A DNA stretch of 34,101 nucleotides from Thermoplasmata archaeon (GCA_021163705.1 JAGGTO010000138.1:1-34101), one strand, 5' to 3'; positions 3,908 to 29,713 are shown, counted from the first letter of the stretch. A program made the numbers and translations. Notes: generated by a model not told the origin, from the letters alone.

Positions 3908-3945
3908 GGCCAGTCATAAAACGCTCCTATAGCATGGACTGGAAG

Positions 3946-3950
<5 letters not shown>
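3908..3950 (-). other. 3' strand of the 23S rRNA processing stem, including a bulge-helix-bulge motif
   Basis: It pairs with 6874-6915 as follows. 3908-3919 pairs with 6904-6915 (12 bp). 3921-3927 pairs with 6897-6903 (7 bp, one G.U; 3920 is bulged). 3928-3930 is a 3-nt bulge. 3931-3934 pairs with 6893-6896 (4 bp). 6890-6892 is a 3-nt bulge on the other strand. 3935-3950 pairs with 6874-6889 (16 bp). Confidence 0.85.
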
Positions 3951-6873
<2,923 letters not shown>

Positions 6874-6878
<5 letters not shown>

Positions 6879-6915
6879 CTTCCAGTCCATTGTGCCGGAG
6901 CGCTTATGACTGGCC
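6874..6915 (-). other. 5' strand of the 23S rRNA processing stem (BHB partner of 3908-3950)
   Basis: See the pairing listed for 3908-3950. The sense strand reads GGCCAGUCAUAA-GCGCUCC-GGCA-[CAA]-UGGACUGGAAG-GUAGC. Confidence 0.85.
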
Positions 6916-7080: not shown

Positions 7081-7129
7081 CCTTAAACTCTATTGCTTAA
7101 TAATGTTGCAAACTGGAGGTGTTAAAATA

Positions 7130-10100
7130 ATGAGAGTAATAAGGTTAATTCTGACAGTATCTCTAATCTTTGTTCTAACTGGGAGTTTATTCGCAGGATC
7201 ATTTCATCCTTCAAATTTTGAGGGGAAGGAGATACCAAATGGGATTAGGGAAACAAATATATTGCCAAGAGGTAATGTTGTCACAATCACAGAAACATTT
7301 GTAATAAATCGAACGACCATAGATCCCCTTACAGGTAAAAGAGGTCAGTATGGGTTCGACGCAAATGTTTATGTTGCTCCTGGAGGAACGCTGAAAGTGG
7401 AAAACGCCACAATTTACTTCCTTTCAGATGAAGAGCATCCCTATAATCTAACTGTGAAGGGTAACCTTTATCTATACAATGCCACGGTAACCATTGGAGG
7501 AGGTTTAATAAAGCCACATTATCCATTCTCCATAAACATTGGGGGCACAGTAGTTGGAGAGGTGAAAATAATAAAATCCAAACTTCTCTATCCCGGATGG
7601 TTCAATGTGAGCAATAAAAATGGGAATGTCATAATTATTGATTCAACATTCGATAAGATGCATGGGGGCACTTTAGATAACCCCCCTCCCTTTGGTCCCA
7701 TACCATATATCAAGAATTCAAAAATATTCATACTGAATACTAGCTTCAAAAGTCTTCCCAAGAGGGAATCTTCTGGAAGTGGATCTATAGGATATGCATA
7801 TAATAGCACTGAAATAACTCTGGGTTCTTCTGGAGGACTTGGTGCCACTCACGGGGGTAATCTCACCTATGGGAATTTCAAAAAGAAGGTATATTCAGAG
7901 TATGAGAAATTCTGGGAGTATGTGGTTCTCAAGGATTTTGTTCTGAAACTTGCCTATACGAATGATTCCCAGTATGATGAAAAATCACTGCTGCAGGTTA
8001 TTTACAAGGGGAGATACAGGGATACATATCTTGCAAATTTCACAATACCTGGAGTCAAAGAGGGCACCGGAGCTATCAACGAGACTGTTTCACTGGAAAA
8101 TTATAATTTCACTGGGAATGAATTTTTCCAGGAGCTTCAAACAGGTAAGATAGTTGTTTATGTTACTGCTCCACACAATGGAACCCTCACCCTTAAAAAT
8201 CTCACACTGATTATGGAAGTGGAAAAGAATCTGCTTGTGGATGGTATTAAAGGCTACTGTTTCAATGTTGAGCATTCTACAATCTATGGCAGGGATGTGT
8301 ATGTTGATGTTGACTATCGCAATCGCAGATATCTGGGCATAAATCACAATATGTTCAATGTGATGAACGGCGCACATCTCTACTTCCTAAATCTAACCAT
8401 AAATGATACAGGCAAAGAGAAAAGGGAAGATACGGCATTTCTCTTTCAGGATAGCCAGTCAGAGGCATATATTTTGAGATATGTGGTTGCAAAGGTGAGC
8501 TTCCATAACCATCCAATCGACAGCCTACATGTATACGCTACTCCATATCCTGTGGATGTCAGCAGTGATCCCCAGCTGATTTCAAAAATAGTAGGTGTGA
8601 TTTCTTCATACATCTCTGAAACACAGCATGTGAGCTCCATGAGCATAGGACACATCTCTGGAAATTCTGTCTGGGATATAACAAAAGATGGAAAGGCCCT
8701 TCTTCCTCTTCTCTCAGATATTCTTAATAATTCTGAGATGCCAAATAGTAAATTTGTGGGAATTTACAATGTTGAAGTGAAAAACACTACAAAGGAGTTC
8801 GCAAAGGTGCAGATAGGTCTCAACTACTTCCCATGGCTGCTCCCAGAGAACAACAGTGTGGTATACAATCTAATTCTCAAGAAATACCAGGATGTGGATC
8901 TTCAGGTTGTGGATGTGGATGTGCTGAATGAAGAGCCATACATAAGCGGGGAAGATGTGAAGATAAAGGTAAAGGTGGAGAATCTGGGTAATGATAAGGC
9001 TGTAGCTCCTGCTCTTGCGATATACATAAATGATTTGCTTTATGAGAATATCACGCTCCCAGATATTAATGGAAAGGATAGCTATGAAAACACATATATG
9101 CTCTCGGGCAACTATTTTGCTAATGCAGATATTTATCACATCAATGTGAGTGTGTATCAAATATGGGATTATGAGCTTACAAATAATTGGAGAGGTATTA
9201 CTATTTCAGTTGGAGATATATATGCCAAGAACTGGGTTCCATCGCAAGTCATAAGATATCACGCAGTGAATGTGAGTTTAACACTCACATCCACATACGA
9301 GTGGGACAATGTGAAGGTCTCCCTCTATCTGGACAATCAAACAAATCTTATAGGGGAGCATACACTAAACCTTCAATCTGGAGATAACCCACTCATCTAT
9401 CAATGGGATGTGGGCTCCACCTCAGTGGGAAGCCATACTCTCTTACTGTATGTGAATTCCAAGCTAGTGGGTATGTATCATATTGATGTGAAATATGATG
9501 TAGATCTTCAGGTTGTTGACCCGTCAATAAACCCATCCGAGGTCTATGTGGGAGAGAGCGTAACAATCTCCACCAATGTGGAAAATGCAGGCAAAGATGT
9601 ACCCTCATCCGCAGAGATAATTATATCTCTCTACGACCCACTTGGAAATCTGATAAGCAATGAGAGCTTTACCTATCCTTCCACATATCAGCTGAGCTAT
9701 ACTCCTGAGCTGAGTGGGACATATACGGTCCAAATAAAGGTAATATCCAGCATCGATTATAACATCACTAACAACAAGTACTCCTTTACCTTCGTGGTTA
9801 ATCCAGTGCCATATTCTGTGAGTGTGACATCCTCCGCCGTTTATTACAATGGAACCGATATAGTAATAAATGTTACAGTTTACAGTGAGCTCTCTGCAAG
9901 CTTAAATGTGAATGTGAAGATAAGCGAGCTAGGAATAACACTACAGCCTGAGGGTGGAAATCCTGTGAATGTGGAGAAGAGTTCCACCGTATCCCTGCAG
10001 TTCATACTTTCCAAAAATGCCTATAAGAGTGTGCTGCAGGGAAAAACAAGTGTGAAACTCACATATTATGTGTGGATTTCCTCTGATAGAACGGGAGATG

Positions 10101-11659
10101 CGCTATACTCCTTTGGTCCAAATTATCTAACAATCAAAGAAATCGCAGATTTGGAGATCCTACCAGGCAGCTTTGTTGTGGAGCTGAATGGAAAAAATGT
10201 AACGCAGGTGGCGGAGAAGGTAACGGTCACCATAAGGTTCACTGTGGAGAATGTGGGTGGTTTACCTGCCACCCTTTCATATATCTTAGTGGATGGAGAG
10301 AAGATCCTGGTGGAAAAGACAGCAGGCACTTTGAACCCAGGGGAAAAGGTCACAGTGGAGTACAATTACACAGTGGATGGAGTTGGAACGCATAATCTCA
10401 AGGTGGAGCTGAATCCCCAGAGAAATGTTACGGAGAGAAACTACGAAAATAACAATGCAACTCTTATGCTCAAGGTTATTCCTCCCACCATGGAAATAGT
10501 ATTTACAAGATATTCAGAGGAGCACGGTAATACCATTTACCAGGAAGACCACATAATCGTCCTGGTAAAAGTTGTAAACAAAAACGCAACGGAATCCAGT
10601 GGAAAAACTGTGTGGATGAGCAATGTCACCGTATACCTGGATCTCGGTAATTTGGGAAGATATTCCCAGATGACAAACAAATTTGGAGTGGCAAAGTTCG
10701 TTATACCTGCAAAGAATGTTGGTTCGTATGCTCCTTTAGTCACTGTGGAGTATTATGGCGCAAAGCAGAGCTTCACTCTCACAGCTAAAGATTACAAGGT
10801 GGTGGTGGAGAAGAAGCCTCTACAGCTTCCCTGGCTGTGGATAATAATAGGGGCAATAGTCGCAGGTGTTGGAGGATTCTTCCTATATGGATTCCTGCGT
10901 TTCAAGAAAAAGGCAAAGGAATATATGATCTGTGGAAACTGTGGCCGGTTAGTGCCTGCGGATGCTGAGAAATGTCCATATTGTGGTGTTGTATTTGAAA
11001 AGGAGAAGGTCAAATGTCCAGAGTGCGGCTCCTGGATTGATGAGGATTCCAAATACTGTCCGGTGTGTGGAGCTCTCTTTATGGATAAGGAGGATCCAGA
11101 ATACGATAAGTACAGTGAACTTAAGAGTAAATATGATAAGTACATAGAGAAGTATAAGACAGAAGCCAAGAAATACATAGGAGAGGAATACACAACGGAG
11201 GAGTTCTTCAAGTGGTGGAAGACTCATCCAGAGTTCATATCCTTCCAGGAATGGATCAAGAGACAGGAAGAGAGAGTTGAGGGAGAGACTGTAGTGTGTC
11301 CAGTATGTGGAGCAGTTAATCCCAAAGGAGCAAAGATATGCCGTGTTTGCGGTTCACCTCTTCCAGTGGAAGAAGAAGAGAAGAAAGAGGAAAGAACAGA
11401 GGAGGAAGAGGGAAAAATAAAGCCACTGCCTTTGGCTCATGAAGAAATAGAGAGACTTAAGAGACCTGGAGTTGTAACTGTAGAAGAATGGGCCAAGAAG
11501 AGGGAAGAGAAAAAAGAGGGAGAAAAGAGAGAGGGAGAGAAACCAGCAAAAGAAGAAGAGGTAGAAGAAAAGAAGGAAGAGAAGAAACCCATTGTGAAGA
11601 AAAAGGTGATTAAGAAGGTAATAGCACTGGAGGAGAAAGAGAAGAAAGAGGAGAGCTAA
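7130..11659 (+). CDS. Very large N-glycosylatable surface protein: Sec signal, beta-helix-like region, CARDB-like Ig repeats, one TM helix, three cytoplasmic zinc ribbons, Lys/Glu-rich tail
   Basis: The ORF is open from 7103, but the ATG at 7130 has GGAGGT 9 nt upstream and starts a classic signal peptide (MRVIRLILTVSLIFVLTGSLFAGS). Many N-x-S/T sequons are present. Repeated modules include DLQVVDVDVLNEEPYISGEDVKIKVKVENLGNDKA, DLQVVDPSINPSEVYVGESVTISTNVENAGKDV and ..VTVTIRFTVENVGGLPA (about 8890-10480). The TM helix is LPWLWIIIGAIVAGVGGFFLYGFL (about 10826-10897). Three C-x2-C-x10-C-x2-C ribbons lie at 10931-11353. A KE-rich tail runs to the stop. Confidence 0.9.
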   Translation: MRVIRLILTVSLIFVLTGSLFAGSFHPSNFEGKEIPNGIRETNILPRGNVVTITETFVINRTTIDPLTGKRGQYGFDANVYVAPGGTLKVENATIYFLSDEEHPYNLTVKGNLYLYNATVTIGGGLIKPHYPFSINIGGTVVGEVKIIKSKLLYPGWFNVSNKNGNVIIIDSTFDKMHGGTLDNPPPFGPIPYIKNSKIFILNTSFKSLPKRESSGSGSIGYAYNSTEITLGSSGGLGATHGGNLTYGNFKKKVYSEYEKFWEYVVLKDFVLKLAYTNDSQYDEKSLLQVIYKGRYRDTYLANFTIPGVKEGTGAINETVSLENYNFTGNEFFQELQTGKIVVYVTAPHNGTLTLKNLTLIMEVEKNLLVDGIKGYCFNVEHSTIYGRDVYVDVDYRNRRYLGINHNMFNVMNGAHLYFLNLTINDTGKEKREDTAFLFQDSQSEAYILRYVVAKVSFHNHPIDSLHVYATPYPVDVSSDPQLISKIVGVISSYISETQHVSSMSIGHISGNSVWDITKDGKALLPLLSDILNNSEMPNSKFVGIYNVEVKNTTKEFAKVQIGLNYFPWLLPENNSVVYNLILKKYQDVDLQVVDVDVLNEEPYISGEDVKIKVKVENLGNDKAVAPALAIYINDLLYENITLPDINGKDSYENTYMLSGNYFANADIYHINVSVYQIWDYELTNNWRGITISVGDIYAKNWVPSQVIRYHAVNVSLTLTSTYEWDNVKVSLYLDNQTNLIGEHTLNLQSGDNPLIYQWDVGSTSVGSHTLLLYVNSKLVGMYHIDVKYDVDLQVVDPSINPSEVYVGESVTISTNVENAGKDVPSSAEIIISLYDPLGNLISNESFTYPSTYQLSYTPELSGTYTVQIKVISSIDYNITNNKYSFTFVVNPVPYSVSVTSSAVYYNGTDIVINVTVYSELSASLNVNVKISELGITLQPEGGNPVNVEKSSTVSLQFILSKNAYKSVLQGKTSVKLTYYVWISSDRTGDALYSFGPNYLTIKEIADLEILPGSFVVELNGKNVTQVAEKVTVTIRFTVENVGGLPATLSYILVDGEKILVEKTAGTLNPGEKVTVEYNYTVDGVGTHNLKVELNPQRNVTERNYENNNATLMLKVIPPTMEIVFTRYSEEHGNTIYQEDHIIVLVKVVNKNATESSGKTVWMSNVTVYLDLGNLGRYSQMTNKFGVAKFVIPAKNVGSYAPLVTVEYYGAKQSFTLTAKDYKVVVEKKPLQLPWLWIIIGAIVAGVGGFFLYGFLRFKKKAKEYMICGNCGRLVPADAEKCPYCGVVFEKEKVKCPECGSWIDEDSKYCPVCGALFMDKEDPEYDKYSELKSKYDKYIEKYKTEAKKYIGEEYTTEEFFKWWKTHPEFISFQEWIKRQEERVEGETVVCPVCGAVNPKGAKICRVCGSPLPVEEEEKKEERTEEEEGKIKPLPLAHEEIERLKRPGVVTVEEWAKKREEKKEGEKREGEKPAKEEEVEEKKEEKKPIVKKKVIKKVIALEEKEKKEES

Positions 11660-13299
11660 CTTCTTAAAACCTCTTCCACTCTTTTTAATACCTCTTCTGG
11701 ATTTTTATAGTACGCCGATACTATTCTTGCCACATCTCTGTAATATCTCACTCCCAGTTTTTCCATGTATTCCAGAATCCTTTCCCTTCTTTTGACTTCA
11801 AGCTCCATTCTTCTCTGTGACCAGCCCTTTATGGTGGCTATTTTTTCATACACATAGCTATGTCCACTGAAATTGAAAGTATCATCTGCAGGGTTCCAGA
11901 TGTAAGCATTGTTGGTAATTATTTCATTTGTCTCGGGATCTATTCCCACGATTTCGGTGATTGTTTTAACCCTTCTTGTCATGGAATTTCCAACCTTCAC
12001 TTGCGCTTGAAGAATAACTATGTCAAGGGCACCAATCAGGGCTCTCGGTAAATTTATGGGAGCATTTTCAAATCTGTGAACCATGGATTTGACATCCTCA
12101 GCATGGAAGGTTGTGAAACATGTTTTGCCTGTGGCCATTGCCTGGAACACTGTGTATGCCTCGGCACCTCTTACCTCACCCACCATGATGTACTGAGGTC
12201 TCTGTCTTAGAGCTGCCTTAAGCAAGTCAAACATATCTATTTCTCCAGGCTTTTTACCCGTAACGGGGTGCGGCTCACCAACCCCCTCTCTTGTGAGAGA
12301 AGGTATCCAGTTCTCGTGGGGAAGATTGAGTTCTCTGGTATCTTCTATGCTCACTATCTTCATGTTTGGAGGTATGAAGAGCAGGATGGCATTGAGTGTG
12401 GTAGTTTTTCCACTTGCAGTACCTCCACACACTATTATGCTCATCCCATTCTCAACGGCCAGCCATAAATAGGCCATCATCTCCCTGCTCATAGTCTTAA
12501 ATCTTATGAGATCTATAGGAGTAAATGGATTTGGCTTGAATCTTCTTATAGTAAATGACGATCCTCTTTTTGTAACATACTTACCAAGAGTGGCCTGCAA
12601 TCTTGAGCCATCGGGCAGTGAAGCATCCACCATGGGACTCGAGATGGATATATGCTTCCCGGATTTCTGCACAATCCAGATTACATAGTTATCCAGATTT
12701 TCTTCCTTCTGAAACATCAGATTTGATTTTATTGAGCCATACATACGATGATATATGTAGATGGGAATATTCACGCCATCACATGATATATCCTCCACCT
12801 CGCTATCTATCATTGGAACTTGTATTAGACCATAGCCTATGAAATCCCTGTAGATGTAGTATTTCATCCTATCCCATACCACTGCATCTAGCGCAATGTT
12901 GAGGTCATCTCTTACCTTCTCAGCGGTCTTAAAAAGATATTCTTTTCTCTCTTCAATGCTCTCAAACTCTTTAATCTCGAGATATTCAACCATGTGAGCT
13001 TTAAGTTCCTCTAAAATTTTGATTTCCTCATCGCTAAGAGGTGGCTCGATCACCTCGTATATGTACTCGCTGTTGATGGTATCATAAATTATTCTAACAA
13101 ATGAGTATGGCTCTTCTATACTTCTTATCTCTATTTCCTTTAGGTGAGGGGAGGTGATTGGAGGTACAGGTGTGATATCCGTTCCATATTCCTTCTCCTG
13201 TCTGGGTAGTTTTATCTTGAAACCTTCCTTCTTCACCATTGGAAAAACAAGATTAAGGAGCTTAAGTCTTGAAGGTACATCTTTCTTTGATATTGCCAT
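11656..13299 (-). CDS. Type IV filament assembly ATPase, FlaI/PilB/TadA (VirB11-GspE) family, paralogue 1
   Basis: Walker A is CGGTASGKTTTLNA, the Asp/Walker B region is IVSIEDTRELNLPH, and RQRPQYIMVGEVRGAEA and the His box TTFHAED are present. The ORF is open to a GTG at 13308, but the ATG at 13299 is preceded by GAGGTG at the usual distance. It is the last gene of the operon. Confidence 0.9.
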   Translation of the reverse strand: MAISKKDVPSRLKLLNLVFPMVKKEGFKIKLPRQEKEYGTDITPVPPITSPHLKEIEIRSIEEPYSFVRIIYDTINSEYIYEVIEPPLSDEEIKILEELKAHMVEYLEIKEFESIEERKEYLFKTAEKVRDDLNIALDAVVWDRMKYYIYRDFIGYGLIQVPMIDSEVEDISCDGVNIPIYIYHRMYGSIKSNLMFQKEENLDNYVIWIVQKSGKHISISSPMVDASLPDGSRLQATLGKYVTKRGSSFTIRRFKPNPFTPIDLIRFKTMSREMMAYLWLAVENGMSIIVCGGTASGKTTTLNAILLFIPPNMKIVSIEDTRELNLPHENWIPSLTREGVGEPHPVTGKKPGEIDMFDLLKAALRQRPQYIMVGEVRGAEAYTVFQAMATGKTCFTTFHAEDVKSMVHRFENAPINLPRALIGALDIVILQAQVKVGNSMTRRVKTITEIVGIDPETNEIITNNAYIWNPADDTFNFSGHSYVYEKIATIKGWSQRRMELEVKRRERILEYMEKLGVRYYRDVARIVSAYYKNPEEVLKRVEEVLRS

Positions 13300-13309
13300 T
13301 TTTACCACC

Positions 13310-14188
13310 TCATGCAGCTCCCATTATTCTCAGGATCAGATATCCTGAGACAAGCAGCAGGAATGCCCATACCATCCCGCTTTTCATCCTCCCATCCGAA
13401 AGTAGACCTATCATTATTCCATCTCCAACACCATGGAAAATGGTGGCTATTACAAATAGAAGTCCTATAATGGGTACATTTTCATAAGCTATATTCACGG
13501 GAATATTTGTTGGAACGGTCATATGTTGAAGACTCTCTCTCACCGCACGGCCAGCTTTAGCCATTTCTGGTAGGAATGATCTGTTGAGAATTATAATGGT
13601 GGCTACAAATACAAAGAAGGATGTGAGAAGAACAAATGCGTATGTGAACATCTCCATTTTCCTTTCCTTTTCCATAAGCTGTGTCTCTCTGGCCGCATGT
13701 GCCACCATGGAAAGTACATCGGCCACATTACCTCCAGCCTCATTAGCTTTTATTATTATGGCAACCATCCTATTTATCAGGGGAGTGTTGATTCTTCTGT
13801 TGAAGGAGAGAAGAGCATCCTTCACCGGTACTCCCCACTCTATTTTTGAGGCCATCCTTTTTATCTCATCTGTGAGGGCGCCATACCTTCCAGAAGAGGC
13901 CACGACTATGGCCTCCGCCAGGGTCATACCAAATCTTCCTGCTTCTGCCACATCCCTTAGGAAATCTGGAAATCTCTCTTCTATCCTCTTAATTCTCCTC
14001 TGATTAATAAAATCGTATATTCCCGGACCAATAAGGAATGCAGCTATTCCAATTACTATCATGTCAAGCCATTTTAAACTCGGGATAATGGAACCCATCT
14101 TGTATCCAACTATGCCAAGAATTATGAAGAATGCCGCGATAATTGAAGACGAATACCAGATGATTTTCTCCTTGCTCAGTTTTACCAT
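13310..14188 (-). CDS. Half-size type II secretion system F-domain platform protein (TadC/EpdK-like)
   Basis: 292 aa. It has an N-terminal TM pair, a cytoplasmic helical domain (FPDFLRDVAEAGRFGMTLAEAIVVAS..., IEWGVPVKDALLSF) and C-terminal TM helices, giving a single T2SSF-type unit. The start overlaps the upstream stop (TAATG), and GGAGGTG lies 9 nt upstream. Confidence 0.8.
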   Translation of the reverse strand: MVKLSKEKIIWYSSSIIAAFFIILGIVGYKMGSIIPSLKWLDMIVIGIAAFLIGPGIYDFINQRRIKRIEERFPDFLRDVAEAGRFGMTLAEAIVVASSGRYGALTDEIKRMASKIEWGVPVKDALLSFNRRINTPLINRMVAIIIKANEAGGNVADVLSMVAHAARETQLMEKERKMEMFTYAFVLLTSFFVFVATIIILNRSFLPEMAKAGRAVRESLQHMTVPTNIPVNIAYENVPIIGLLFVIATIFHGVGDGIMIGLLSDGRMKSGMVWAFLLLVSGYLILRIMGAA

Positions 14189-15189
14189 TAGACGGTCACC
14201 TCCTTACTGGTACTGTAGATGAAATAGCTAAACACGAAGATTATCAGGGGAATCATCACCATCACCACTATCTCCAAAAGAAGTACAATGGTTGCACTGC
14301 TGCTACCATTTATAAGTGCCATAATCGCCATTATTATGACCAGGAACAATGGAAATGCCACACCCACCGTAACATATATTTCTGCGAATAATCCAAGATT
14401 CTCCATATTCCTTTTTAGATTCAATTTCTGCTCCTTCTCGAACTCTTCCGATTTGAGAAGGAAATAGGGCTTTAGCCTTCCTCCAGAGGTAGCTGTTGTA
14501 ATCACACCCTGCAAAAATTCTTGCCATTTGGTAGATGGACTCCTTCTAGATGCCTCACCTAAGGCTGTGAGTATATCCTTACCCAAAAGCTCTGTATCTC
14601 TGGTAATCCACTCAGCCTCCTTGGCTATCTCTCCATACTCCTTTCTCTGTGCAAGCTCCTTGAAGATGGTGGCTACAGTTACATCTGCCGATGATAATGA
14701 AGCTATGAAGTTCATTGCTGATGGAAGATGAATGTCAATATTCTTTGCTCTTTTCTTTGCCTTAGAAGCGGGTGATGATGGAAGGGTGGCAAGGGTGATA
14801 ATCGGCGGCATTACCGCTATTATTATTCCCAGAAGGATGAATATTATGGATGGTAACATTGGAAGGAGAAAATATCCAAAAAGAAATACAAAGACTCCAA
14901 GCCCAATACCTACAAGTCCCATAACCAGAGTGGTAAAGTAGATATAGGCAAGATATTCCTGTGGCCTCAAAAGTATGTGGGCCTTGAGAAGATCCATCTC
15001 AAGCTTCGTGTATTTTTTATTTTTTATATTTTTCTCGGCAAGCTTGCCCATAAGCTTCCATGCCACTTTATAATATGGAGAAATGTGAATATAGGAAGGC
15101 AAGCTTCCCTTGGGGAGTTTCACCTTGTATTCTCTTCCCTCAGAAGGCTTTGGGGCATATTTTGAGAAGAGTTTTGCCATTAGTCCCAT
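14188..15189 (-). CDS. Half-size type II secretion system F-domain platform protein (TadB/EpdJ-like)
   Basis: 333 aa with the same architecture as the neighbouring platform gene: TM helices, a cytoplasmic helical domain (HLPSAMNFIASLSSADVTVATIFKELA..., LGKDILTALGEASRRSPS) and C-terminal TM helices. The ATG directly follows the ATPase stop (TAAATG), with GGAGGTG in the last codons of the upstream gene. Confidence 0.8.
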   Translation of the reverse strand: MGLMAKLFSKYAPKPSEGREYKVKLPKGSLPSYIHISPYYKVAWKLMGKLAEKNIKNKKYTKLEMDLLKAHILLRPQEYLAYIYFTTLVMGLVGIGLGVFVFLFGYFLLPMLPSIIFILLGIIIAVMPPIITLATLPSSPASKAKKRAKNIDIHLPSAMNFIASLSSADVTVATIFKELAQRKEYGEIAKEAEWITRDTELLGKDILTALGEASRRSPSTKWQEFLQGVITTATSGGRLKPYFLLKSEEFEKEQKLNLKRNMENLGLFAEIYVTVGVAFPLFLVIIMAIMALINGSSSATIVLLLEIVVMVMIPLIIFVFSYFIYSTSKEVTV

Positions 15190-16821
15190 TTACTCCACCT
15201 CCTCCAGTTCTGCACGGATTTTCTCTGCGGTTCCCACAGGATCACGATAATACTCATTGATGTACTTCCATATCTCCCTGTAATCCAGAATCTTCTTCTT
15301 TACCCAGTATCTTACAATATCCCTTCTCCTCTCAAATTCCTCCATCATCTCATTATGTGTTAGATTTTTCATTGTCATGATTTTATCAAACAAATAACTG
15401 TGTCCCTTGAATCTATGCACATCCTTATCCTGCTCCCATTCAAAGACCACATTGGTGATTAGCTCATTGGTCTCCGGCTCAAATCCCACATTTTCTACCA
15501 CCTGAGTTATTCTTCTTCCTATCGTGTCCCTTATTCTCACAATTTTTTGAATTATAACATTGTTCAGGGCAGTCATAAGGATCCTCGGGCAGTTTATTGG
15601 AGGATTCTCCAGGCGATGGATCATTGAGACTATGGAATCTGCATGCATTGTTGAATATGTGGTATGGCCAGTGGCCATGGCCTGGAACATTGTATAGGTT
15701 TCTCTCCCTCTGACCTCTCCCACAATTATGTAATTTGGTCTCTGTCTCAAGGCGGCTCTCACAAGATCGTACATGTCTATCTCTCCCGCAGCCTTGCCTG
15801 TTAATGTGGCTTCACCCATTCCGCTTCTGGTTGTTCCAGGTATCCAATTCTGATGTGGGAGGTTTATCTCCCTTGTATCCTCCATGCTAACTATTTTTGC
15901 AGCCGGAGGAATGAACATGGCAAAGGCATTGAGCGTTGAGGTTTTTCCACAGGCAGGTCCACCAATCACAATAGCACTCTCGCCCTGCTCCACCATCAGC
16001 CAGAAATAGGCCACAATCTCTGGAGAGGCGGTGCCATACATAACCAGCTCTGTGGGAGTAAATGGTTTCTCCTTGAATCTTCTTATGGTAAATGTGGCAC
16101 CTCTCGTGGTAACCTCCCTCCCATAGGTGGCCTGAACCCTGTGCCCCTCCTCTGTGGTACCATCTAAAATGGGATCTGCCACCGAAATCTGTTTCCCGCA
16201 TTTTTGAGAAATATAGACGACAAAGGAGTTGAGCTCATCATCGTCATTGAACATCAACTTGGTTTTCATAGATTGATATTTTTTGTGGAAGATGTATATT
16301 GGAATTCCAACACCATCACATGATATATCCTCTACCCTCTCATCACGAATGAGCCCATCTATTTTTTGATAGCCTATATAATCCCTCACAACATAATACA
16401 TTATCTTCTGCTTCGAAATCTTGTCAATTTTTATTTCCCTGCTTCTAAGGAAGCTATCCACACTATCCACAAGATACTGCTCCTTATCTTTCCTTGTCAT
16501 AATTTTCCAGTTGTAGGTGAGTGTTCTTTCCAGGGTGTCCTTGATATCCCATAATATTTCTTCCTCCTCTTCTGTAAGGGGAGGTTCGAGAAGCTCGTAT
16601 ATGTACTCGTACTCCTCCCTGTTGTATATTATTCTCGCATAAACATAGGGCGGATAAATGGGATATACCTCCACACTTTCATAGTTGGGATTCTCCAACG
16701 GGGGAATTGGAGTTATATCGCTACTCTTCGCCACTTCAAATTTTGGAATTTTTATCTTGACCTTTGGTTTTACCCATGTCTGGAAGAATCCGAAGCTTAT
16801 TTTCTTACTTTTGGAAACCAT
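15190..16821 (-). CDS. Type IV filament assembly ATPase, FlaI/PilB/TadA family, paralogue 2
   Basis: Walker A is GGPACGKTSTLNA. IVSMEDTREINLPH, RQRPNYIIVGEVRGRET and the His box STMHADS are present. The N-terminal domain is colinear with paralogue 1 (ITPIPPLENP.., YIYELLEPPLTEEE). Confidence 0.9.
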   Translation of the reverse strand: MVSKSKKISFGFFQTWVKPKVKIKIPKFEVAKSSDITPIPPLENPNYESVEVYPIYPPYVYARIIYNREEYEYIYELLEPPLTEEEEEILWDIKDTLERTLTYNWKIMTRKDKEQYLVDSVDSFLRSREIKIDKISKQKIMYYVVRDYIGYQKIDGLIRDERVEDISCDGVGIPIYIFHKKYQSMKTKLMFNDDDELNSFVVYISQKCGKQISVADPILDGTTEEGHRVQATYGREVTTRGATFTIRRFKEKPFTPTELVMYGTASPEIVAYFWLMVEQGESAIVIGGPACGKTSTLNAFAMFIPPAAKIVSMEDTREINLPHQNWIPGTTRSGMGEATLTGKAAGEIDMYDLVRAALRQRPNYIIVGEVRGRETYTMFQAMATGHTTYSTMHADSIVSMIHRLENPPINCPRILMTALNNVIIQKIVRIRDTIGRRITQVVENVGFEPETNELITNVVFEWEQDKDVHRFKGHSYLFDKIMTMKNLTHNEMMEEFERRRDIVRYWVKKKILDYREIWKYINEYYRDPVGTAEKIRAELEEVE

Positions 16822-16825
16822 TTTA

Positions 16826-17695
16826 TCACGCCCCTATTTCCACTTCATAATATATTAAATTAACATTCACCCGGGCCACATTTTGAATTTCTAAAGTCAT
16901 ATTCCCATGGGATTGTACCTCTGCTGAGTCGCCCAGATAGCTATGGATAGTTGCATTTATATAATCCAGCCAGAATTTTGTGAAGTTGAGATGCAGATTC
17001 CCGTATGTATACTCGCTTCTGACAGTTATATTCACTGAATTTTTGGGAGTATAAACATATGAGGCTGAGCCAACATATGTGATTCCCAGGTTTCTTGTTT
17101 CAGTTCCACTTACCATTAGAGATGTGCCGTAGAGCACATTTAGCACCGCAGAAATGATTACCCTTCCCTCCGAGAGGGAGAATTTTATATTTGGCTCTAT
17201 GACAAATGTTGTATTATTTGCCTGGAAATTGTACCTGCTAACTGCTCCATTTTCCAGTGAGATTATTTCTGGGATGTAATATCTATTGGGTATAAACATC
17301 TGTATGCTTCCGGAGCTGTTGGCATAAATCTCATTTCCGGCCACATCTGGAAAATGTATCGAGAGGAGAAAATTGGATTCGTTGCCTGTGGGAAATACGG
17401 CAAGCTGCCCATAGGTGGGAGAGACAAACAGAGTTATGCCCTCTGCACCAAGTTTAATAGGAATATATGCAGTATAGTTCGTATTTTTCGTTAATGCCAG
17501 GAGATCCATCATACTTCTTATGTATGAAAACTGGGAAATTACCTGCATATCATGCTGAGCCTCATTTCCCTTCATCTGCACAGGTACTACCTGCATCATG
17601 AACATGGAGAGTAAAGCTGTGAATATCATTAAAGCGAATATGGTACCTACGGTGGAAGCTATACCATCCTCCTTCCTTCTATACAGTCTCTTCAT
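16826..17695 (-). CDS. Type IV pilin-like protein with a class III (prepilin-type) signal peptide
   Basis: The N-terminus is MKRLYRRKEDG|IASTVGTIFALMIFTALLSMFMMQV: a charged leader, then D-G-I-A-S-T, then a hydrophobic helix. This fits the archaeal prepilin peptidase substrate pattern. The rest is beta-rich with several N-x-S/T sequons. It is the first gene of the operon. Confidence 0.65.
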   Translation of the reverse strand: MKRLYRRKEDGIASTVGTIFALMIFTALLSMFMMQVVPVQMKGNEAQHDMQVISQFSYIRSMMDLLALTKNTNYTAYIPIKLGAEGITLFVSPTYGQLAVFPTGNESNFLLSIHFPDVAGNEIYANSSGSIQMFIPNRYYIPEIISLENGAVSRYNFQANNTTFVIEPNIKFSLSEGRVIISAVLNVLYGTSLMVSGTETRNLGITYVGSASYVYTPKNSVNITVRSEYTYGNLHLNFTKFWLDYINATIHSYLGDSAEVQSHGNMTLEIQNVARVNVNLIYYEVEIGA

Positions 17696-17860
17696 AAATA
17701 TGACACCATTTACTATAGAGTCACTTTCCTATTTAAACTTATCTTATTATCAGTATGGGATGATAACATTCAGTGATGGCCAAAACTTTATGAGCTCGAA
17801 TAATGTGCTAAGAGAGAAGGGAAACGAAAATTTAATATGTGGGGGAGTCATCTTAATTTT

Positions 17861-19231
17861 ATGAGTGTTCCATCGGAGGTCAAAGATTTTCTCCAGAAGG
17901 AGGGAGTGATACTTTTAATAAGGGGATTGCCCGGCACAGGAAAAACAATTTTTTCTCTCAGCCTGATGATGGGTCTCAGAAATGCGGCATATATCACAAC
18001 GGAAAAGGTGGCAAAGGATATAGAGAGAAATTATCCCTGGGTTGATGAGGATGCAAAGAAGAGGATATTCATCCTGGATGGAAAGTATGATTTTTCTCCC
18101 TCCACAAGATTTGAGAATTTTCTCTATCTATTTCCCAATTCAATAAGACATGTGTTAAATCTCGTTGAAAAGGGGGAGATAAACACAATAATTCTGGATA
18201 GCTGGCACACAATACTTCAAGAGATGAGATTTAAGGAAATAGAGGAGAGAGAGCGCCGGGAGGTATACAATCCCGATAGGTTTTTTCTCAATTTACTAAA
18301 ACTTTCAGATATGGGTGTGAACATAATAATATGCAAGGAGGGGATTGAGGAAGACGACCTCTCCTATGTTGCAGATGGTGTCGTGACTCTTCACAAAAAG
18401 GTTGAAAATGGAAGAATATTCAGGGGAATTACCATAGATAAGCTTAGGGGGATAGAGATAAAAAGGGCCGAGTATGTATTTTCCCTGAAGGATGGAAAGG
18501 CGCATACCCTTCTATCACAGCATTTCAAGCATCCCCACAATCTTCGAGAATTTCCAGTGAAGGAGATAAAAATTGGTCGAGGAGTACCATCTTGCGTGTT
18601 TGATTCGATTTTGAGATTTAAAAGAGGAGACACAATTTTCTATGATTTTGAGGAATATGTTTCCAAGGAATATCATCTCACCGTAATAATGTCCACACTT
18701 GCAAATTTTCTGAAAAACAATCTTAAAAGCATTATCCTGCCCCCAAATGATATGGATGCAAATGAGCTAAAGTATCAGATATATCTCTTCTCACTTGAGA
18801 AGGAGCTAAAGAATCTGCGCGTGCTTTACAATGAAGAAGAGATGGAAGAATATATTGAGCAGGTGAATATGAAGGATGAGAAACTTCTGGAAGAGGTGGT
18901 TAAGAGAGGGCTGGAGGGAGCATCCATGCCGCTTTTCATACTGGGTTATGATCGTCTTCACAGCTATCTCTCTTCCCATGAGATCATGCAATTCATAGAC
19001 TTCCTGAGAAATGAGATAAGGAAGAGAAGTGGGATACTTATAATCAGTGGAAAAATCTCTGAGAGGGAGATAAAAAGATTCTGCGCCGGGTTATCCGATG
19101 TTTACATAAAGATAAACAATGTAAATGGAGATTCCATAATGTATGGAATTAAGCCATGGACCCATGCCTATCATCTCAATCTCACCACAGATGAAGGATA
19201 TCCAAAGATTGTTCTGGAGGAGATAACATGA
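17861..19231 (+). CDS. KaiC/RecA-superfamily ATPase (FlaH-like N-terminal domain) with a degenerate second domain
   Basis: Walker A is LIRGLPGTGKTIFSL and Walker B-like is NTIILDSWH. The C-terminal ~230 aa lack a P-loop. The ORF is open from an ATG at 17837. However, TTTAATAT (17831-17838) overlaps that ATG and is centred 26 nt upstream of the ATG at 17861, which suggests a leaderless start there. Confidence 0.75.
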   Translation: MSVPSEVKDFLQKEGVILLIRGLPGTGKTIFSLSLMMGLRNAAYITTEKVAKDIERNYPWVDEDAKKRIFILDGKYDFSPSTRFENFLYLFPNSIRHVLNLVEKGEINTIILDSWHTILQEMRFKEIEERERREVYNPDRFFLNLLKLSDMGVNIIICKEGIEEDDLSYVADGVVTLHKKVENGRIFRGITIDKLRGIEIKRAEYVFSLKDGKAHTLLSQHFKHPHNLREFPVKEIKIGRGVPSCVFDSILRFKRGDTIFYDFEEYVSKEYHLTVIMSTLANFLKNNLKSIILPPNDMDANELKYQIYLFSLEKELKNLRVLYNEEEMEEYIEQVNMKDEKLLEEVVKRGLEGASMPLFILGYDRLHSYLSSHEIMQFIDFLRNEIRKRSGILIISGKISEREIKRFCAGLSDVYIKINNVNGDSIMYGIKPWTHAYHLNLTTDEGYPKIVLEEIT

Positions 19232-19587
19232 AGCGCATACTTCTTGTGGACGATTCCCCACTGTTTTACAATTTCGTGAGAAATGTGCTAAAGAAAGAAA
19301 ATATTGAGATTGAGTGGGCCAAAAATGGAAGGGAAGCTTTAAGAAAAATAAAGGAAAAGAAGCCAGAGCTTATCCTAGTGGATATAATCCTCTCAGACAT
19401 GAATGGAGTGGAGCTCATAAGAAAAATAAGGAGAGATTGGGAGAAAGCCAAGATCATAGTTATCACGGGTGTTGATAAAGATTATGTGGCAGAGGATGCC
19501 TTCGAGGCAGGAGCCTTAGACTATCTGGTGAAGAATCTTCCTCTTGGAGAATTTAAGAAGAAGATTTTAAAATATCTGGAGAACTGA
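19228..19587 (+). CDS. Stand-alone response-regulator receiver (CheY-like) protein
   Basis: 119 aa. It carries the acidic pocket LLVDDS, the phospho-acceptor context ELILVDIILSDMNG, then IIVITGV and DYLVKNLP. ATGA overlaps the KaiC-like gene, and GGAGG lies 7 nt upstream. Confidence 0.85.
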   Translation: MKRILLVDDSPLFYNFVRNVLKKENIEIEWAKNGREALRKIKEKKPELILVDIILSDMNGVELIRKIRRDWEKAKIIVITGVDKDYVAEDAFEAGALDYLVKNLPLGEFKKKILKYLEN

Positions 19588-26164: not shown

Positions 26165-26608
26165 TCAGGCATAGCCCACAACATCACTCTTCTTTTTAGT
26201 TTGTTTTTGCTGCATAAACTGGGCTGGTGGCGGAATTGGCGGGGGTAATCTAAGCTCCTTGGCTATCCAGACAGCTTCTATCACACAGTTATTTATTATG
26301 GTTGCATGAACCTCCTGTGCCACTTCATCAGGCATCCTGTGCTTTTTTCTCCATTCCTCGGCTATTTCTTTTGCATTCCCCTCATATATTAAGATCCCAT
26401 CCAGGGTTATTACACCTATGCCAGAGTAGGTGACAGTGAATTTGAAGGACATCTTCACCTTGTTCTCATCTTCATAGGATATTGAGAGTATGGTGCTATT
26501 ATTATCAATTCTTATCTCTCTAGGGGCATTTTCAGGCTCTATAAACCTCTTCGCCTCAATGCCATCAATTCTAAATAGCTTTATCATAGGATACCCTATG
26601 GTTTGCAT
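26165..26608 (-). CDS. Conserved-looking small protein of unknown function (tentatively SecB-like fold), co-transcribed with reverse gyrase
   Basis: 147 aa, starting 6 nt after the reverse gyrase stop. The pattern IKLFRIDGIEAKRFIEPENAP ... FKFTVTY ... ITLDGILIYEG ... helix ... LRLPPPIPPPAQF parallels the beta-sheet/helix layout and terminal motif of SecB. This is a by-eye resemblance only. Confidence 0.6.
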   Translation of the reverse strand: MQTIGYPMIKLFRIDGIEAKRFIEPENAPREIRIDNNSTILSISYEDENKVKMSFKFTVTYSGIGVITLDGILIYEGNAKEIAEEWRKKHRMPDEVAQEVHATIINNCVIEAVWIAKELRLPPPIPPPAQFMQQKQTKKKSDVVGYA

Positions 26609-26614
26609 CCTTAT

Positions 26615-29600
26615 TTACTTTCCCCTTATTTCCTGAATCTCCTGGTAGAGCTCCTGAAGAACATCATTGTAGTCCTTTTCCCCACTCTCAATTTTATCCA
26701 TCTTCTCCTCCAGAATTCTCGTTCTTTCCTCACTTATGAATTTACCATAGTTGGAGGAGAGATAAGAGAAAACATCCACACCTCTCTTAGTGGGTATTAA
26801 ACCCATTTTTCCTTCATAAATGTATTTTCTCTGAAAGAGCTTACCAAGGATTGTTGCATAAGTGCTTGGCCTTCCTATGCCACGCTCTTTCATCAATCTT
26901 ATTACATCCGCCTGTGTATATGGAGGAATCTTTATTATCCTTTTTTCAACTTCAATTTTCCCCCTTCCCTCTTTCAATGGAGGGTATATCTTCAGACTAT
27001 AGGGATATAGTTTGTATGCCTTTCCCCTTGCACCTGTAACCAGGGAGAACTGCATCTCCTCACCATTCACCTTCAATTCATACCTGGAAATTTTCATAAG
27101 GCCTTTACTCTGAGATGCCATAAATCTTCGGAAAATTAAATCGTAGAGGAGAATTTCATTCCCCTCCATTTTAATCTGCAAGATTTCCTCGTTTATGTAT
27201 CTTTGAATTGTTTGAGAATCCCAAGGTCTTGTGGGACGGATACATTCATGTGTACCCTCCTTCCCCCATCTCCTACCTACAAAATCATCCTTGAGATAAT
27301 CTTTTGCAATTTTCAGGCCCACATCGGATACATGCGTAGAATCTGTGCGATGATATGTTATGAGACCCATTTCAAAAAGGTTCTGAAGTATCCTCATTGC
27401 CTCCTTTGCTCCAATTCCATATATTCTATGAGCATCTTTGAGTATCTCATCGGTGGTATAGGGCGGAATAGCATATTCCTTTTCCTCCATCCCTATCTTT
27501 CTTATTTCTCCATAGAGCTCGCCCTTCCAGGGAAGCTTAACAGGAGTGCCTTTGAGGAACCATGCCTCTTCCTTTTTCTTCGACTCTTCATATCTTTCGA
27601 TTATCCATCCAAGCACTGGAGTCTGGGCTCTACCCGCCGAGAGATTTCTCTCGCCATACTTTTTCCAGAGCTTCTGAGAAAGCTCAAAGCCTATCCATCT
27701 ATCCTCAATTCTCCTCACTATCTGTGCTTTAACTAAATCTTCGTTCATCTCTCTCTCCTTCTCTATAGCCTCAAGAATCGCCCTTTTTGTCACCTCATGA
27801 AATTCTGCCCTTCCAATATGTTTCGCAAATGGAAATAGGAGATTTTTAAGATCCCATGCTATTTTCTCTCCTTCAATATCGGGATCTGTGCCTATGAGCA
27901 CACTCTCACATTCAAATGCGAGAGCCCTCAAAACATCTATCTGGGTCTTTGCAAAATATACATCATCAGAACCGCAGATTGGACATCTATCACCCTCAGT
28001 AAACTGATAATTGCATTTTCTGCATTTCCTAAGGGGTGCATATACAGGAATGAAATCCTTCTTCACTATCACTCCATGAAATCCTCTCTTGGTCACGAGA
28101 TCCACAATATGACCAAGGGATGGGGCTATAAGTAAAACATTCTTCTCTGTGGCCACTTCATATACTATTGCATTGCCTATTATTCTTACATTTGGTTTTC
28201 CAAAGAACCTTGCGATATGCTTGGCCTTATTTGGACTCTCAACAATGAATAGGAGGGGCTTAATTACCTCCTCCCCTTTTCCTCCCTTCTTTAGCTTTTT
28301 CCTATCTTCATCTATTTCCCTGGCAAGCCGAGAAAGATTTACCTCTTCCATTTCTCTGAATTCAATATCGTAAAGGGATGCTCTTCTTTCGAATACCTCC
28401 AATTTCGAAATATCATCAAGAAGAAAACTGGCCCCCTTGGTAATCCCTCCCAGATATAAACGGGATGCCCTTCCAGAGCCCTGAAGATATGTCCGAATAT
28501 CTGGAAATATTATCTTTCCCTCTTCATATATGAATCCCGAGCCCTGGAGAGTTCTCCGAGTTTCAAAAAGTCTTTTGAGCTTTTTTCTGAGTTTCTCAAA
28601 CTCTCTTTTATTTGCAAGTTCAACAAGCTCCTCTTCCCGCAGCATATAGGCAAGAGAAATTATTATCCTATCACTCACCGAATCTATGTTCTCTGCTCCT
28701 ATTTTGAAATGGGGTATCCCGTAAAATACAACAAACCTTATTCTCTCAGGAAGGTCTATACCCCTGATGAGAGAGCCATATGGGGTAGCCACGCCGAGAA
28801 GATAATCAAGCTCTCCATTTTTGAATTTCTCGTAGGCCCTTTTATCCTCAGAGACTACCACACCAACTCTAAACTCCTGCAGTAAGGAGGAAAGCTCGTA
28901 TGCTTCATCCGCCGTAGGTGTGAAGATCAAACCCCCAGAACCCATCGCTCTTAAAATGTTGACCAATTGCTCCTTCGGAGCTTTTATGTCTTCTATGTTT
29001 CTCACGGCATTCTGAATGTTTCCCACATCGAAATTAAGCTTCTCCCTCAGAAGCTTTGTGTTGTAACCTTTTGTGCCTGTGGCCGTGGAAACCATCAGAA
29101 CCCCCTTGCCTCGAAGTACGAGAGAGATGAGCTTCTCAATATTTTTTGATTTCTTGAGCACTGAATCCACATCATCCACAAATATAAAATCGAATTTTAG
29201 ATTGGAAACCATGCTAAAATTTCTTGATAGAAATGCAGAAGTGGTCACAAGAATCTTAAAGTTTCCCTTTGAAATTCTCTCTCTCATCTCCTCTTTTTCT
29301 CCTTTTTTCATTTTTCCGTGATAATATACTACACCCTCTCCTCCCATCATGCTTAGCTTCTCCACACACTCCTTCAATAAAAGGGTGGTGGGTAGAATCA
29401 AATAGCTTCTCTTTCCCTTGCCCGAAAGATACAGGGCCATAATTATGCCGAAGGAGGTCTTCCCTATTCCCGTGGGAGCAATAGCAGCAAAAGAGTAACC
29501 ACTAAGCACTCTCTTTGCCCACATTCTCTGCAATGCTCTGGGCTTTGCATTCATCTTCTCTTCAAAAAATTTCTCAAATTTTTGATATTCCCAGGATAGG

Positions 29601-29713
29601 GATGTGTAATACAGCCTCTTCTTTTTTTTCTCACAAAAATTCTTCTCTATTTCAAACCAGCTAAGATCCCCTCCACATTGTGGACATAGCTCACCATAAA
29701 TCACAGGAAGCAT
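26615..29713 (-). CDS. rgy: Reverse gyrase (SF2 helicase-like domain fused to type IA topoisomerase)
   Basis: 1032 aa. Helicase motifs are APTGIGKTSFG, FVDDVDS, STATG and YLQGSGRASR. The Toprim domain has LFIVESPNKAKHI and GTDPDIEGEKIA. An internal zinc ribbon reads CRKCNYQFTEGDRCPICG. The active-site Tyr context is LITYHRTDSTHVS. TTAAATAT (complement of 29735-29742) is centred about 25 nt upstream of the ATG. Confidence 0.95.
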   Translation of the reverse strand: MLPVIYGELCPQCGGDLSWFEIEKNFCEKKKKRLYYTSLSWEYQKFEKFFEEKMNAKPRALQRMWAKRVLSGYSFAAIAPTGIGKTSFGIIMALYLSGKGKRSYLILPTTLLLKECVEKLSMMGGEGVVYYHGKMKKGEKEEMRERISKGNFKILVTTSAFLSRNFSMVSNLKFDFIFVDDVDSVLKKSKNIEKLISLVLRGKGVLMVSTATGTKGYNTKLLREKLNFDVGNIQNAVRNIEDIKAPKEQLVNILRAMGSGGLIFTPTADEAYELSSLLQEFRVGVVVSEDKRAYEKFKNGELDYLLGVATPYGSLIRGIDLPERIRFVVFYGIPHFKIGAENIDSVSDRIIISLAYMLREEELVELANKREFEKLRKKLKRLFETRRTLQGSGFIYEEGKIIFPDIRTYLQGSGRASRLYLGGITKGASFLLDDISKLEVFERRASLYDIEFREMEEVNLSRLAREIDEDRKKLKKGGKGEEVIKPLLFIVESPNKAKHIARFFGKPNVRIIGNAIVYEVATEKNVLLIAPSLGHIVDLVTKRGFHGVIVKKDFIPVYAPLRKCRKCNYQFTEGDRCPICGSDDVYFAKTQIDVLRALAFECESVLIGTDPDIEGEKIAWDLKNLLFPFAKHIGRAEFHEVTKRAILEAIEKEREMNEDLVKAQIVRRIEDRWIGFELSQKLWKKYGERNLSAGRAQTPVLGWIIERYEESKKKEEAWFLKGTPVKLPWKGELYGEIRKIGMEEKEYAIPPYTTDEILKDAHRIYGIGAKEAMRILQNLFEMGLITYHRTDSTHVSDVGLKIAKDYLKDDFVGRRWGKEGTHECIRPTRPWDSQTIQRYINEEILQIKMEGNEILLYDLIFRRFMASQSKGLMKISRYELKVNGEEMQFSLVTGARGKAYKLYPYSLKIYPPLKEGRGKIEVEKRIIKIPPYTQADVIRLMKERGIGRPSTYATILGKLFQRKYIYEGKMGLIPTKRGVDVFSYLSSNYGKFISEERTRILEEKMDKIESGEKDYNDVLQELYQEIQEIRGK

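Follow-up and report, generated by a model that had tools for sequence, protein, structure and literature searches.

Among archaeal type IV pili, the closest described relative of the locus considered here is that of Aciduliprofundum; Makarova, Koonin and Albers (2016, PMC4858521) note "two distinct ATPases ... in the same locus" for A. boonei. In the same survey the ATPases of A. boonei and MAR08-339 are labelled Clade_2 (Table S2), many Clade 2 loci have two tadC-like genes, and Aciduliprofundum carries, beside its two Clade 2 ATPases, a third one of Clade 3 (archaellum), whose gene neighbours that of an unsplit FlaJ of 554 amino acids (aa) (PMC4858521). A. boonei is archaellated, and the Joint Genome Institute (JGI) names some of these ATPases FlaI. 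Here we describe a locus of this kind on a contig of Thermoplasmata archaeon (GCA_021163705.1, JAGGTO010000138.1:1-34101; the whole stretch of 34,101 nucleotides is called the window), where five co-directional genes on the minus strand (11656-17695) encode, in this order, the pilin-like protein PIL, the ATPase ATP1, the half-size platform proteins F1 and F2, and a second ATPase, ATP2; a gene for a large membrane protein, BIG, converges with them. The DNA, with a G+C content of about 40%, derives from an Aciduliprofundum-like, uncultured member of DHVE2, within the phylum Thermoplasmatota; the closest genomes are DHVE2 metagenome-assembled genomes (MAGs), and the ATP2 of A. boonei is 82% identical to that of the window.

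As judged from gene content and sequence relationships, the operon encodes a euryarchaeal Clade 2 type IV pilus, in the form that this takes in Thermoplasmatota; it is of the adhesion-pilus type and separate from the archaellum. The reading that we favour, with a probability of about 0.6, is that F1 and F2 would build one platform, served alternately by two non-redundant, homohexameric motors. The dual-ATPase layout as such was already catalogued for Aciduliprofundum in 2016, and a literature search returned no paper on dual ATPases beyond that survey; a first, sequence-only reading of the stretch had implied that a two-ATPase locus was novel, which the published A. boonei case contradicts (PMC4858521).

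Two ATPases of the assembly type

The two ATPases are colinear paralogues, as the sequence-only reading had proposed: BLASTP aligns them with 47% identity over 526 aa (E 2e-180), and every peptide pair quoted in that reading is present. Both belong to the T2SSE family in Pfam (E 9e-32 for ATP1 and 4.5e-35 for ATP2) and, at 543-550 aa, have complete N-terminal domains and are colinear with assembly ATPases over their whole length; the PilB3_C domain scores 35.8 bits in ATP2, above its 27-bit cut-off, and 25.8 bits, just below it, in ATP1. Across 79 ATP1 and 59 ATP2 orthologues there is no variation in the Walker A motif, the Asp box, the Walker B motif, the His box or the TIRRF arginines; the catalytic motifs are intact in both proteins and neither has decayed, again as first read.

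The closest relative of both paralogues in the PDB is GspE2 of Archaeoglobus fulgidus (afGspE2, 2OAP/2OAQ), which matches them colinearly over the full length, C-terminal helical domain included (E 1.8e-123 and 42% identity for ATP1, E 1e-141 and 48% for ATP2). Matches to FlaI structures are weaker (about 1e-86 for ATP1 and 1e-92 for ATP2) and those to CpaF much weaker (about 1e-37 and 1e-42, respectively). Against family models, the two ATPases reach 133 and 144 bits with TadA (TIGR03819, cut-off 373), 398 and 446 bits with the FlaI equivalog (NF058587, cut-off 550), and 44.8 and 53.3 bits with PilT (TIGR01420, cut-off 319). In our tree, both sit with afGspE2, and FlaI lies outside.

Homologous archaeal ATPases often carry insertions of about 450-500 aa, at Walker A and near residues 245, 320 and 385 (P0166, P0167, P0176, P0179, P0201, P0218, P0221, P0223, P0230, P0231, P0235, P0247, P0250, P0256, P0257, P0261 and P0270). 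In P0167, the single one inspected at sequence level, the insertion has a classic intein boundary, GTASGK/CVVG...HN/TCTLNA. Long homologues with two matched stretches had been considered as ATPase-ATPase fusions, and this was rejected, as all but P0127 are intein insertions. P0127 (1154 aa, from the representative library) is a tandem fusion of two complete Tad/Epd-like ATPase units, at residues about 235-630 and 675-1150, each with Walker A, Asp box, Walker B and His box; neither ATP1 nor ATP2 is orthologous to it.

A platform split in place

F1 and F2 contain one T2SSF domain each (E 6e-13 and 4e-19 in Pfam), which, together with the T2SSE matches, bears out the earlier description of a type IV filament operon with its platform in two genes. 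Indeed, the two proteins cover different parts of the NCBIfam profiles for whole platforms: on ArlJ/FlaJ (555 positions) F1 spans 9-241 and F2 spans 270-533, and on UpsF (484 positions) F1 spans 28-247 and F2 spans 268-455. F2 had been described as a second half-size platform, and it is the C-terminal half of which F1 is the N-terminal one. Since they are complementary FlaJ/UpsF halves and only 20% identical to each other (E 0.002), F1 and F2 are taken as one platform split in place. F1 is present in 60 related loci, and the two genes are adjacent, in N-then-C order, in every locus that has them; the PDB, searched by sequence with either protein, gave nothing relevant.

Three features that mark Clade 2 systems (PilB3/PilB4/afGspE2 type) are found in the window; a Clade 2 pilin would, in addition, be processed by a PibD/FlaK-type prepilin peptidase and assembled into a surface filament, and a peptidase gene was not found in the 34 kb. 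For the ATPase (arCOG01817), these are afGspE2 as best PDB relative, the PilB3_C domain and the Clade_2 label of the orthologues in A. boonei and MAR08-339; for the platform (arCOG01808, often in two genes), the T2SSF halves F1 and F2; for the pilin (arCOG02911, with a class III signal), a FlaFind-type motif, a helix-plus-beta model and the likeness to AciM339_0005. The sequence-only reading had called the operon "Tad/Epd-like", which is a wrong label, because the platform halves come N-then-C and the ATPases fall outside the Tad/Epd clade: the TadA scores are far under the threshold, afGspE2 is far closer than CpaF, and the orthologues are classed in Clade 2 and not as Epd. The two-gene platform, which had been taken as a Tad/Epd hallmark, is not diagnostic, since many Clade 2 loci share a split tadC (PMC4858521). 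An archaellum was also considered and rejected, as the FlaI scores are below the cut-off, the platform is split, and archaellin and Fla accessory genes were not found in the window; moreover, Aciduliprofundum has a separate Clade 3 ATPase beside its unsplit FlaJ. The earlier reading had noted that the operon lacks a prepilin peptidase, an archaellin and a FlaC-H gene; in the window at large, no prepilin peptidase, archaellin or FlaC-G gene occurs among the open reading frames (ORFs) of at least 100 aa, although genes for a KaiC-like ATPase and a CheY lie divergently upstream of the operon.

Conservation and divergence across Thermoplasmatota

A genome scan with ATP1 as query recovered 80 loci, all from Thermoplasmatota, whose gene content was established by tblastn and ORF clustering. 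The arrangement PIL-ATP1-F1-F2-ATP2 is seen in the large majority of related loci, and among the 63 with enough downstream sequence the order ATP1-F1-F2-ATP2 is kept in 56, from DHVE2, Methanomassiliicoccales and marine lineages. Distant "Candidatus Thermoplasmatota", reached through an outgroup representative, also keep this four-gene core, with the pilin gene moved to its 3' end. The exceptions form one group of hot-spring Thermoplasmata MAGs (L017-L022, L024, L040), where ATP1 stands alone among housekeeping genes; in L019 and L020, ATP2 lies about 6 kb from ATP1, convergent with a large membrane protein, and platform or pilin genes were not found near the ATPase genes in the locus flanks.

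In a neighbour-joining (NJ) tree, the ATP1 orthologues form one clade (bootstrap 99) and the ATP2 orthologues another (bootstrap 100). The conserved order across Thermoplasmatota and the separate paralogue clades indicate that the ATPase duplication is ancient; the recent, lineage-specific tandem copy that would have undercut the sequence-only reading is not what is observed. A representative library at 50% returned 150 relatives, listed without taxonomy, none of which exceeds 52% identity to either paralogue. In the tree of Makarova et al., a nanoarchaeote and Archaeoglobus sulfaticallidus join the ATP1 orthologues (local support 0.78), whereas Ferroglobus and A. fulgidus join those of ATP2 (0.88) (PMC4858521), which suggests that the two paralogue types predate Thermoplasmatota.

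Mean conservation per domain is nearly equal between ATP1 and ATP2, and the nonsynonymous divergence (dN) from the closest locus, L001, is 0.046 and 0.057 for the two ATPases; synonymous divergence (dS) is saturated even at this distance, so that dN alone was used and no dN/dS ratio. These values indicate strong purifying selection, symmetric between the two ATPases. At eleven positions each clade is fixed for a residue that differs from the other's, and five of them cluster in the loop that ends the N2 domain, which reads LPDGSR in ATP2, a near-universal form found also in afGspE2, FlaI and CpaF, and EEGHR, fixed, in ATP1; others adjoin the Asp box, the His box or the glutamate of Walker B. 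When the sites are polarised against about 110 outgroup representatives, ATP2 has the ancestral state and ATP1 the derived one at most of the 11, while H227 is common to ATP1-side outgroup lineages. Because ATP2 is ancestral-like and ATP1 derived at these sites, the fixed differences read as a signature of subfunctionalisation and not of decay.

The pilin-like protein and the convergent membrane protein

PIL has a FlaFind-type class III motif, RRKEDG/IASTVGTIFALMIF (D-G/IASTVG), followed by a hydrophobic helix, and is the sole ORF with such a motif in the 34 kb window; the first gene of the operon thus encodes a class-III-signal-peptide protein, as had been read at the outset. The N-terminal motif EEG[IV]A[ST][TA][VI]GT is kept in PIL orthologues phylum-wide. 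The AlphaFold2 model of PIL (pLDDT 85) consists of an N-terminal helix of 59 residues and a beta-rich domain. A Pfam search with PIL gave no match, and Foldseek found no PDB match to the model at E<=0.001, with TM-scores up to about 0.2. Aligned along its whole length, PIL shares 51% identity with AciM339_0005. Judging by its tag number and its position, the latter appears to be the fifth gene of the MAR08-339 locus, listed as arCOG02911, "Predicted Pilin family protein", in Table S4 of Makarova et al. (PMC4858521).

The PIL homologues of sister DHVE2 archaea (P0409, P0412, P0415-P0426) are 490-504 aa long and contain an extra LamG/ConA-like lectin domain; this domain suggests a carbohydrate-binding, adhesive role for these versions.

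BIG is composed of a signal peptide, a CARDB/Ig-like ectodomain, a single transmembrane (TM) helix, a cytoplasmic triple zinc ribbon and a Lys/Glu-rich tail, and its gene overlaps that of ATP2 by 4 nt at the 3' ends. A gene of the BIG family is convergent downstream of ATP2 in 40 of the 56 loci with enough flank, within 250 bp in 24 of the 40. It adjoins ATP2 even in loci with a broken operon (L019, L020), and does so too in marine lineages that are only distantly related (L085, L086); members occur among L001-L080 and L085-L087. About 45 members conserve the TM helix, which lies about 250 residues before the C-terminus, together with three CxxC...CxxC motifs whose spacing is fixed, and the signal peptide and Ig/CARDB-like ectodomain are common to the family. 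Table S4 of Makarova et al. lists arCOG01917, "Zn-ribbon domain containing protein", beside the locus, with no flag as a pilus component (PMC4858521). From its conserved position and domains, BIG is probably an accessory partner of the pilus machine, for which it may act as an anchor, an adhesin or a signal relay to ATP2.

Proposed mechanism and alternatives

In the mechanism that we propose, the pilin precursor would be cut by a prepilin peptidase encoded outside the window, F1 and F2 would join into a single pseudo-dimeric platform, and ATP1 and ATP2 would each form a hexamer of their own, docking alternately on that platform. The two would be non-redundant, subfunctionalised motors: ATP2, with its ancestral active-site periphery, would most likely be the main polymerisation motor, and ATP1, with its derived nucleotide-sensing loop, would most likely supply a second activity, such as priming, the handling of a different pilin set, or depolymerisation. 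BIG may serve ATP2 as a tether or a regulator through the zinc ribbons of its cytoplasmic tail. The sequence-only reading had offered three roles for the second motor: retraction, membership of a hetero-hexamer, or service to a second substrate.

Several points weigh against this proposal. An exclusive sisterhood of ATP1 and ATP2 has 8% support in the NJ tree, and 33% when eight extra lineages are added. Strict operon coupling is not universal, because the ATPase genes are dispersed in the hot-spring group, and the KaiC-like and CheY neighbours of the operon are not conserved. PIL, with neither a Pfam nor a PDB match, is large for a major pilin; arCOG02911 is regarded as a minor pilin by Makarova et al. 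(PMC4858521), so the major subunit may be encoded elsewhere. The function of the operon members is derived from homology, and the data here do not separate alternating homohexamers from a mixed ring.

Such a ring, an obligate hetero-oligomer in which ATP1 and ATP2 share one hexamer (e.g., 3+3) and drive the split platform, would agree with their strict co-occurrence, their equal evolutionary constraint and their translational coupling in one operon, and the tandem fusion of two intact units in P0127 would make two-unit rings feasible in the wider family. We regard it as improbable, since some Thermoplasmata genomes have the two genes apart, the fixed differences are close to catalytic motifs and not obviously at subunit interfaces, and P0127 is Tad/Epd-like and not an orthologue. 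The solved relatives afGspE2, FlaI and CpaF are homohexamers, which also counts against a mixed ring. The mirror-image gene order, with each ATPase beside one platform gene, invites another reading, in which ATP1+F1 and F2+ATP2 would be independent modules merged into one locus and acting on different substrates, possibly including BIG; BIG stays with ATP2 when the operon is broken, and ATPase/TadC modules are exchangeable between pilin sets according to Makarova et al. (PMC4858521). This is very unlikely, as F1 and F2 are not equivalent: they are the complementary N- and C-halves of one FlaJ/UpsF-type platform, 20% identical, always adjacent in N-then-C order and overlapping by 1 nt in the window, as expected for fission in place.

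An extension/retraction pair, in which one paralogue polymerises the pilus and the other depolymerises it, would amount to an independent archaeal analogue of PilB/PilT, born by duplication of an assembly ATPase. It is made conceivable by two intact, ancient motors retained together on a single platform, by the fixed changes around the active site of ATP1, by the finding that archaeal pili can retract though archaea lack PilT (PMC11178785), and by the view that PilT itself derived from a duplication of PilB (bioRxiv 10.1101/2023.08.04.552066). Neither ATPase, however, has the features of PilT, with TIGR01420 scores of 45-53 bits against 319 and full N-terminal domains in both. Caulobacter Tad pili retract with a single bifunctional ATPase. 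The same holds for the Aap pili of Sulfolobus, so that retraction does not need a second motor (PMC11178785). Furthermore, both paralogue types have Archaeoglobales relatives, and paralogous ATPase/TadC modules serve different pilin sets (PMC4858521), a pattern that speaks for two assembly motors having merged rather than for a new retraction motor; on balance, a retraction pair seems unlikely. The same doubt applies to a bolder version, which we hold to be speculative and a long way from probable, in which the whole cassette would be an independent archaeal solution for a bidirectional pilus, with ATP1 as an antagonist or gear-change motor and the BIG tail coupling the state of the surface to ATP2.

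Alternating homohexamers on a single split platform therefore remain our preferred reading, while the present evidence describes a catalogued locus type and not a demonstrated new mechanism. Archaeal pili were believed to be non-retracting until 2024, and retraction in Sulfolobus is now credited to a single bifunctional ATPase (PMC11178785). If the bidirectional version were true, Archaea would have their first type IV filament machine with two motors, convergent with the PilB/PilT pair of bacteria. Two intact, diverged motors with one platform throughout a phylum are well suited to the study of how the motors of type IV filaments duplicate and come to divide their labour, in a group that spans DHVE2 archaea of deep-sea vents, methanogens of gut and sediment, and abundant marine lineages; and because A. 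boonei is cultivable, the question of the second motor can be approached experimentally.

Operon layout and neighbouring genes

The ORF listing and the reading of the junctions confirm the initial description of five tightly packed minus-strand genes in the order given; their coordinates, with those of the other features, are collected in Table 1. PIL and ATP1 are separated by a 4-nt spacer; the ATG of F1 abuts the stop codon of ATP1 (0 nt), with GGAGGAGGTGGAG as its Shine-Dalgarno (SD) sequence; F1 and F2 overlap by 1 nt (TAATG); and F2 is followed after 1 nt by the GTG of ATP2 at 13308, or after 10 nt if the ATG at 13299 is used. The start of ATP2 is probably the latter, which gives 547 aa, because it is preceded by a well-placed SD sequence, GAGGTGG, and because ATP2 orthologues in databases are 547 aa long. 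A strong SD-like motif lies inside the preceding gene for each of the four internal genes, whereas the junction reading found none for PIL. All five genes are translationally coupled. A TTTAAATA-like element occurs upstream of the PIL ATG, in the AT-rich intergenic region that is presumed to hold the operon promoter.

Table 1. Position, strand and main characteristics of the pilus operon and of other features in the window
Feature	Position	Strand	Characteristics
PIL, pilin-like, first operon gene	16826-17695	(-)	289 aa; class III signal peptide; arCOG02911 type
ATP1, secretion/assembly ATPase, derived paralogue	15190-16821	(-)	543 aa; T2SSE
F1, half-size platform, N-terminal half of FlaJ/PilC/TadC type	14188-15189	(-)	333 aa; one T2SSF
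F2, half-size platform, C-terminal half of FlaJ/PilC	13310-14188	(-)	292 aa; one T2SSF
ATP2, secretion/assembly ATPase, ancestral-like paralogue	11656-13308	(-)	550 aa from GTG 13308
BIG, membrane protein convergent with ATP2	7103-11659	(+)	1518 aa; CARDB, DZR, Zn_ribbon Pfam matches
Intergenic region, PIL to KaiC-like gene	17696-17836	(.)	141 bp, AT-rich; presumed operon promoter region
KaiC/GvpD-like ATPase	17837-19231	(+)	464 aa
CheY-like receiver	19228-19587	(+)	119 aa
23S rRNA gene, complete	3942-6882	(-)	60% G+C block
Homologue of the 147-aa protein of Methanomassiliicoccales-type loci	26165-26608		
Reverse gyrase	26615-29713	(-)	1032 aa; helicase + topoisomerase IA
Second KaiC-like ATPase	30349-31209	(-)	286 aa; canonical single-domain, E 4e-57

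The genes for the KaiC/GvpD-like ATPase and the CheY-like receiver overlap by 4 nt and diverge from PIL across the 141-bp spacer. Clade 2 pilus loci are known to have KaiC-like genes in their vicinity; the one adjacent to PIL scores 21 bits with FlaH/ArlH models, whose cut-offs are 194-215. The pair was considered as conserved regulators of the pilus, and this was rejected, as none of the related loci examined has the pair in its flanks, not even L001, which is 94% identical. The second KaiC-like gene adjoins one for a 199-aa protein with weak, sub-threshold matches to HTH_23 and DUF2795.

In loci of the Methanomassiliicoccales type (L023, L028, L042-L080; about 27), a protein of about 800 aa is encoded just upstream of the operon (e.g., L044:3419-5959 (+)); it contains a zinc ribbon, a helix-hairpin-helix, a long coiled coil and, at the C-terminus, a KaiC-like ATPase with 85-91% conservation. 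A 147-aa protein is often encoded between this gene and the operon, and it has a homologue in the window.

The complete 23S ribosomal RNA (rRNA) gene lies between BIG and a TYW2/Trm5 gene and is unlinked, as 16S and 5S rRNA were not detected in the window; the order BIG-23S rRNA-TYW2 is the same as in Aciduliprofundum MAR08-339. The reverse gyrase is consistent with a thermophile.

Comparison with known systems

Bacterial Tad and Methanococcus Epd pili also have a platform made of two single-T2SSF genes, which has been attributed to gene fission (Denise et al. 2019, PMC6668835). The ATPases of the window differ in lying outside the TadA/Epd clade, and here the N-half gene precedes the C-half gene; a short Flp/Epd-type pilin, a dedicated peptidase (TadV/EppA) and TadZ were not found in the window. 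Tad uses one bifunctional ATPase. The bacterial type IVa pilus likewise has two paralogous, hexameric ATPases, PilB and PilT, for one platform, which probably arose by duplication and a later division of labour (bioRxiv 10.1101/2023.08.04.552066); PilT, however, is a shortened and distinct family (about 345 aa, without the N-terminal domain), whereas ATP1 and ATP2 are full-length, of the assembly type and 47% identical. Neither of them is thus a member of PilT/PilU, given the length and a TIGR01420 score far below the cut-off.

Within Archaea, the PilB3-PilC3 system of Haloferax volcanii belongs to the same Clade 2 family, and arCOG02911 is the signature pilin of such systems (PMC4858521). It has a single ATPase, with PilA pilins encoded in trans (PMC4858521), and experimental evidence exists for its role in adhesion, whereas the system of the window is known from its genes. 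In Archaeoglobales, relatives occur on both the ATP1 and the ATP2 branches and the ATPase/TadC modules are separately encoded, while the window has one locus with one platform (PMC4858521). The A. fulgidus protein GspE2 is the nearest solved relative of both ATPases; the tree of Makarova et al. places an A. fulgidus protein beside the ATP2 orthologues (PMC4858521).

The Aciduliprofundum MAR08-339/A. boonei T469 locus (gi 432327931-432327936) has the same six genes as the window, in the same order and orientation (PMC4858521): arCOG02911, arCOG01817, two copies of arCOG01808, arCOG01817 and the convergent arCOG01917, then TYW2; the orthologous A. boonei-type locus was also recovered directly in this analysis. 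The species differs, and so does the upstream flank, with KaiC-like and CheY genes in the window and eIF5A and arginase in Aciduliprofundum. In the 2016 description, the conservation, polarity and function of the two ATPases were not analysed and the Zn-ribbon protein was not linked to them (PMC4858521). What is new here is the phylum-wide fixity of the four-gene core ATP1-F1-F2-ATP2; the polarity of the paralogues, as reconstructed from their sequences, with the ancestral LPDGSR in ATP2 and a fixed, derived EGHR in ATP1; and the linkage to ATP2 of a convergent membrane protein, itself conserved, whose cytoplasmic tail holds three zinc ribbons.

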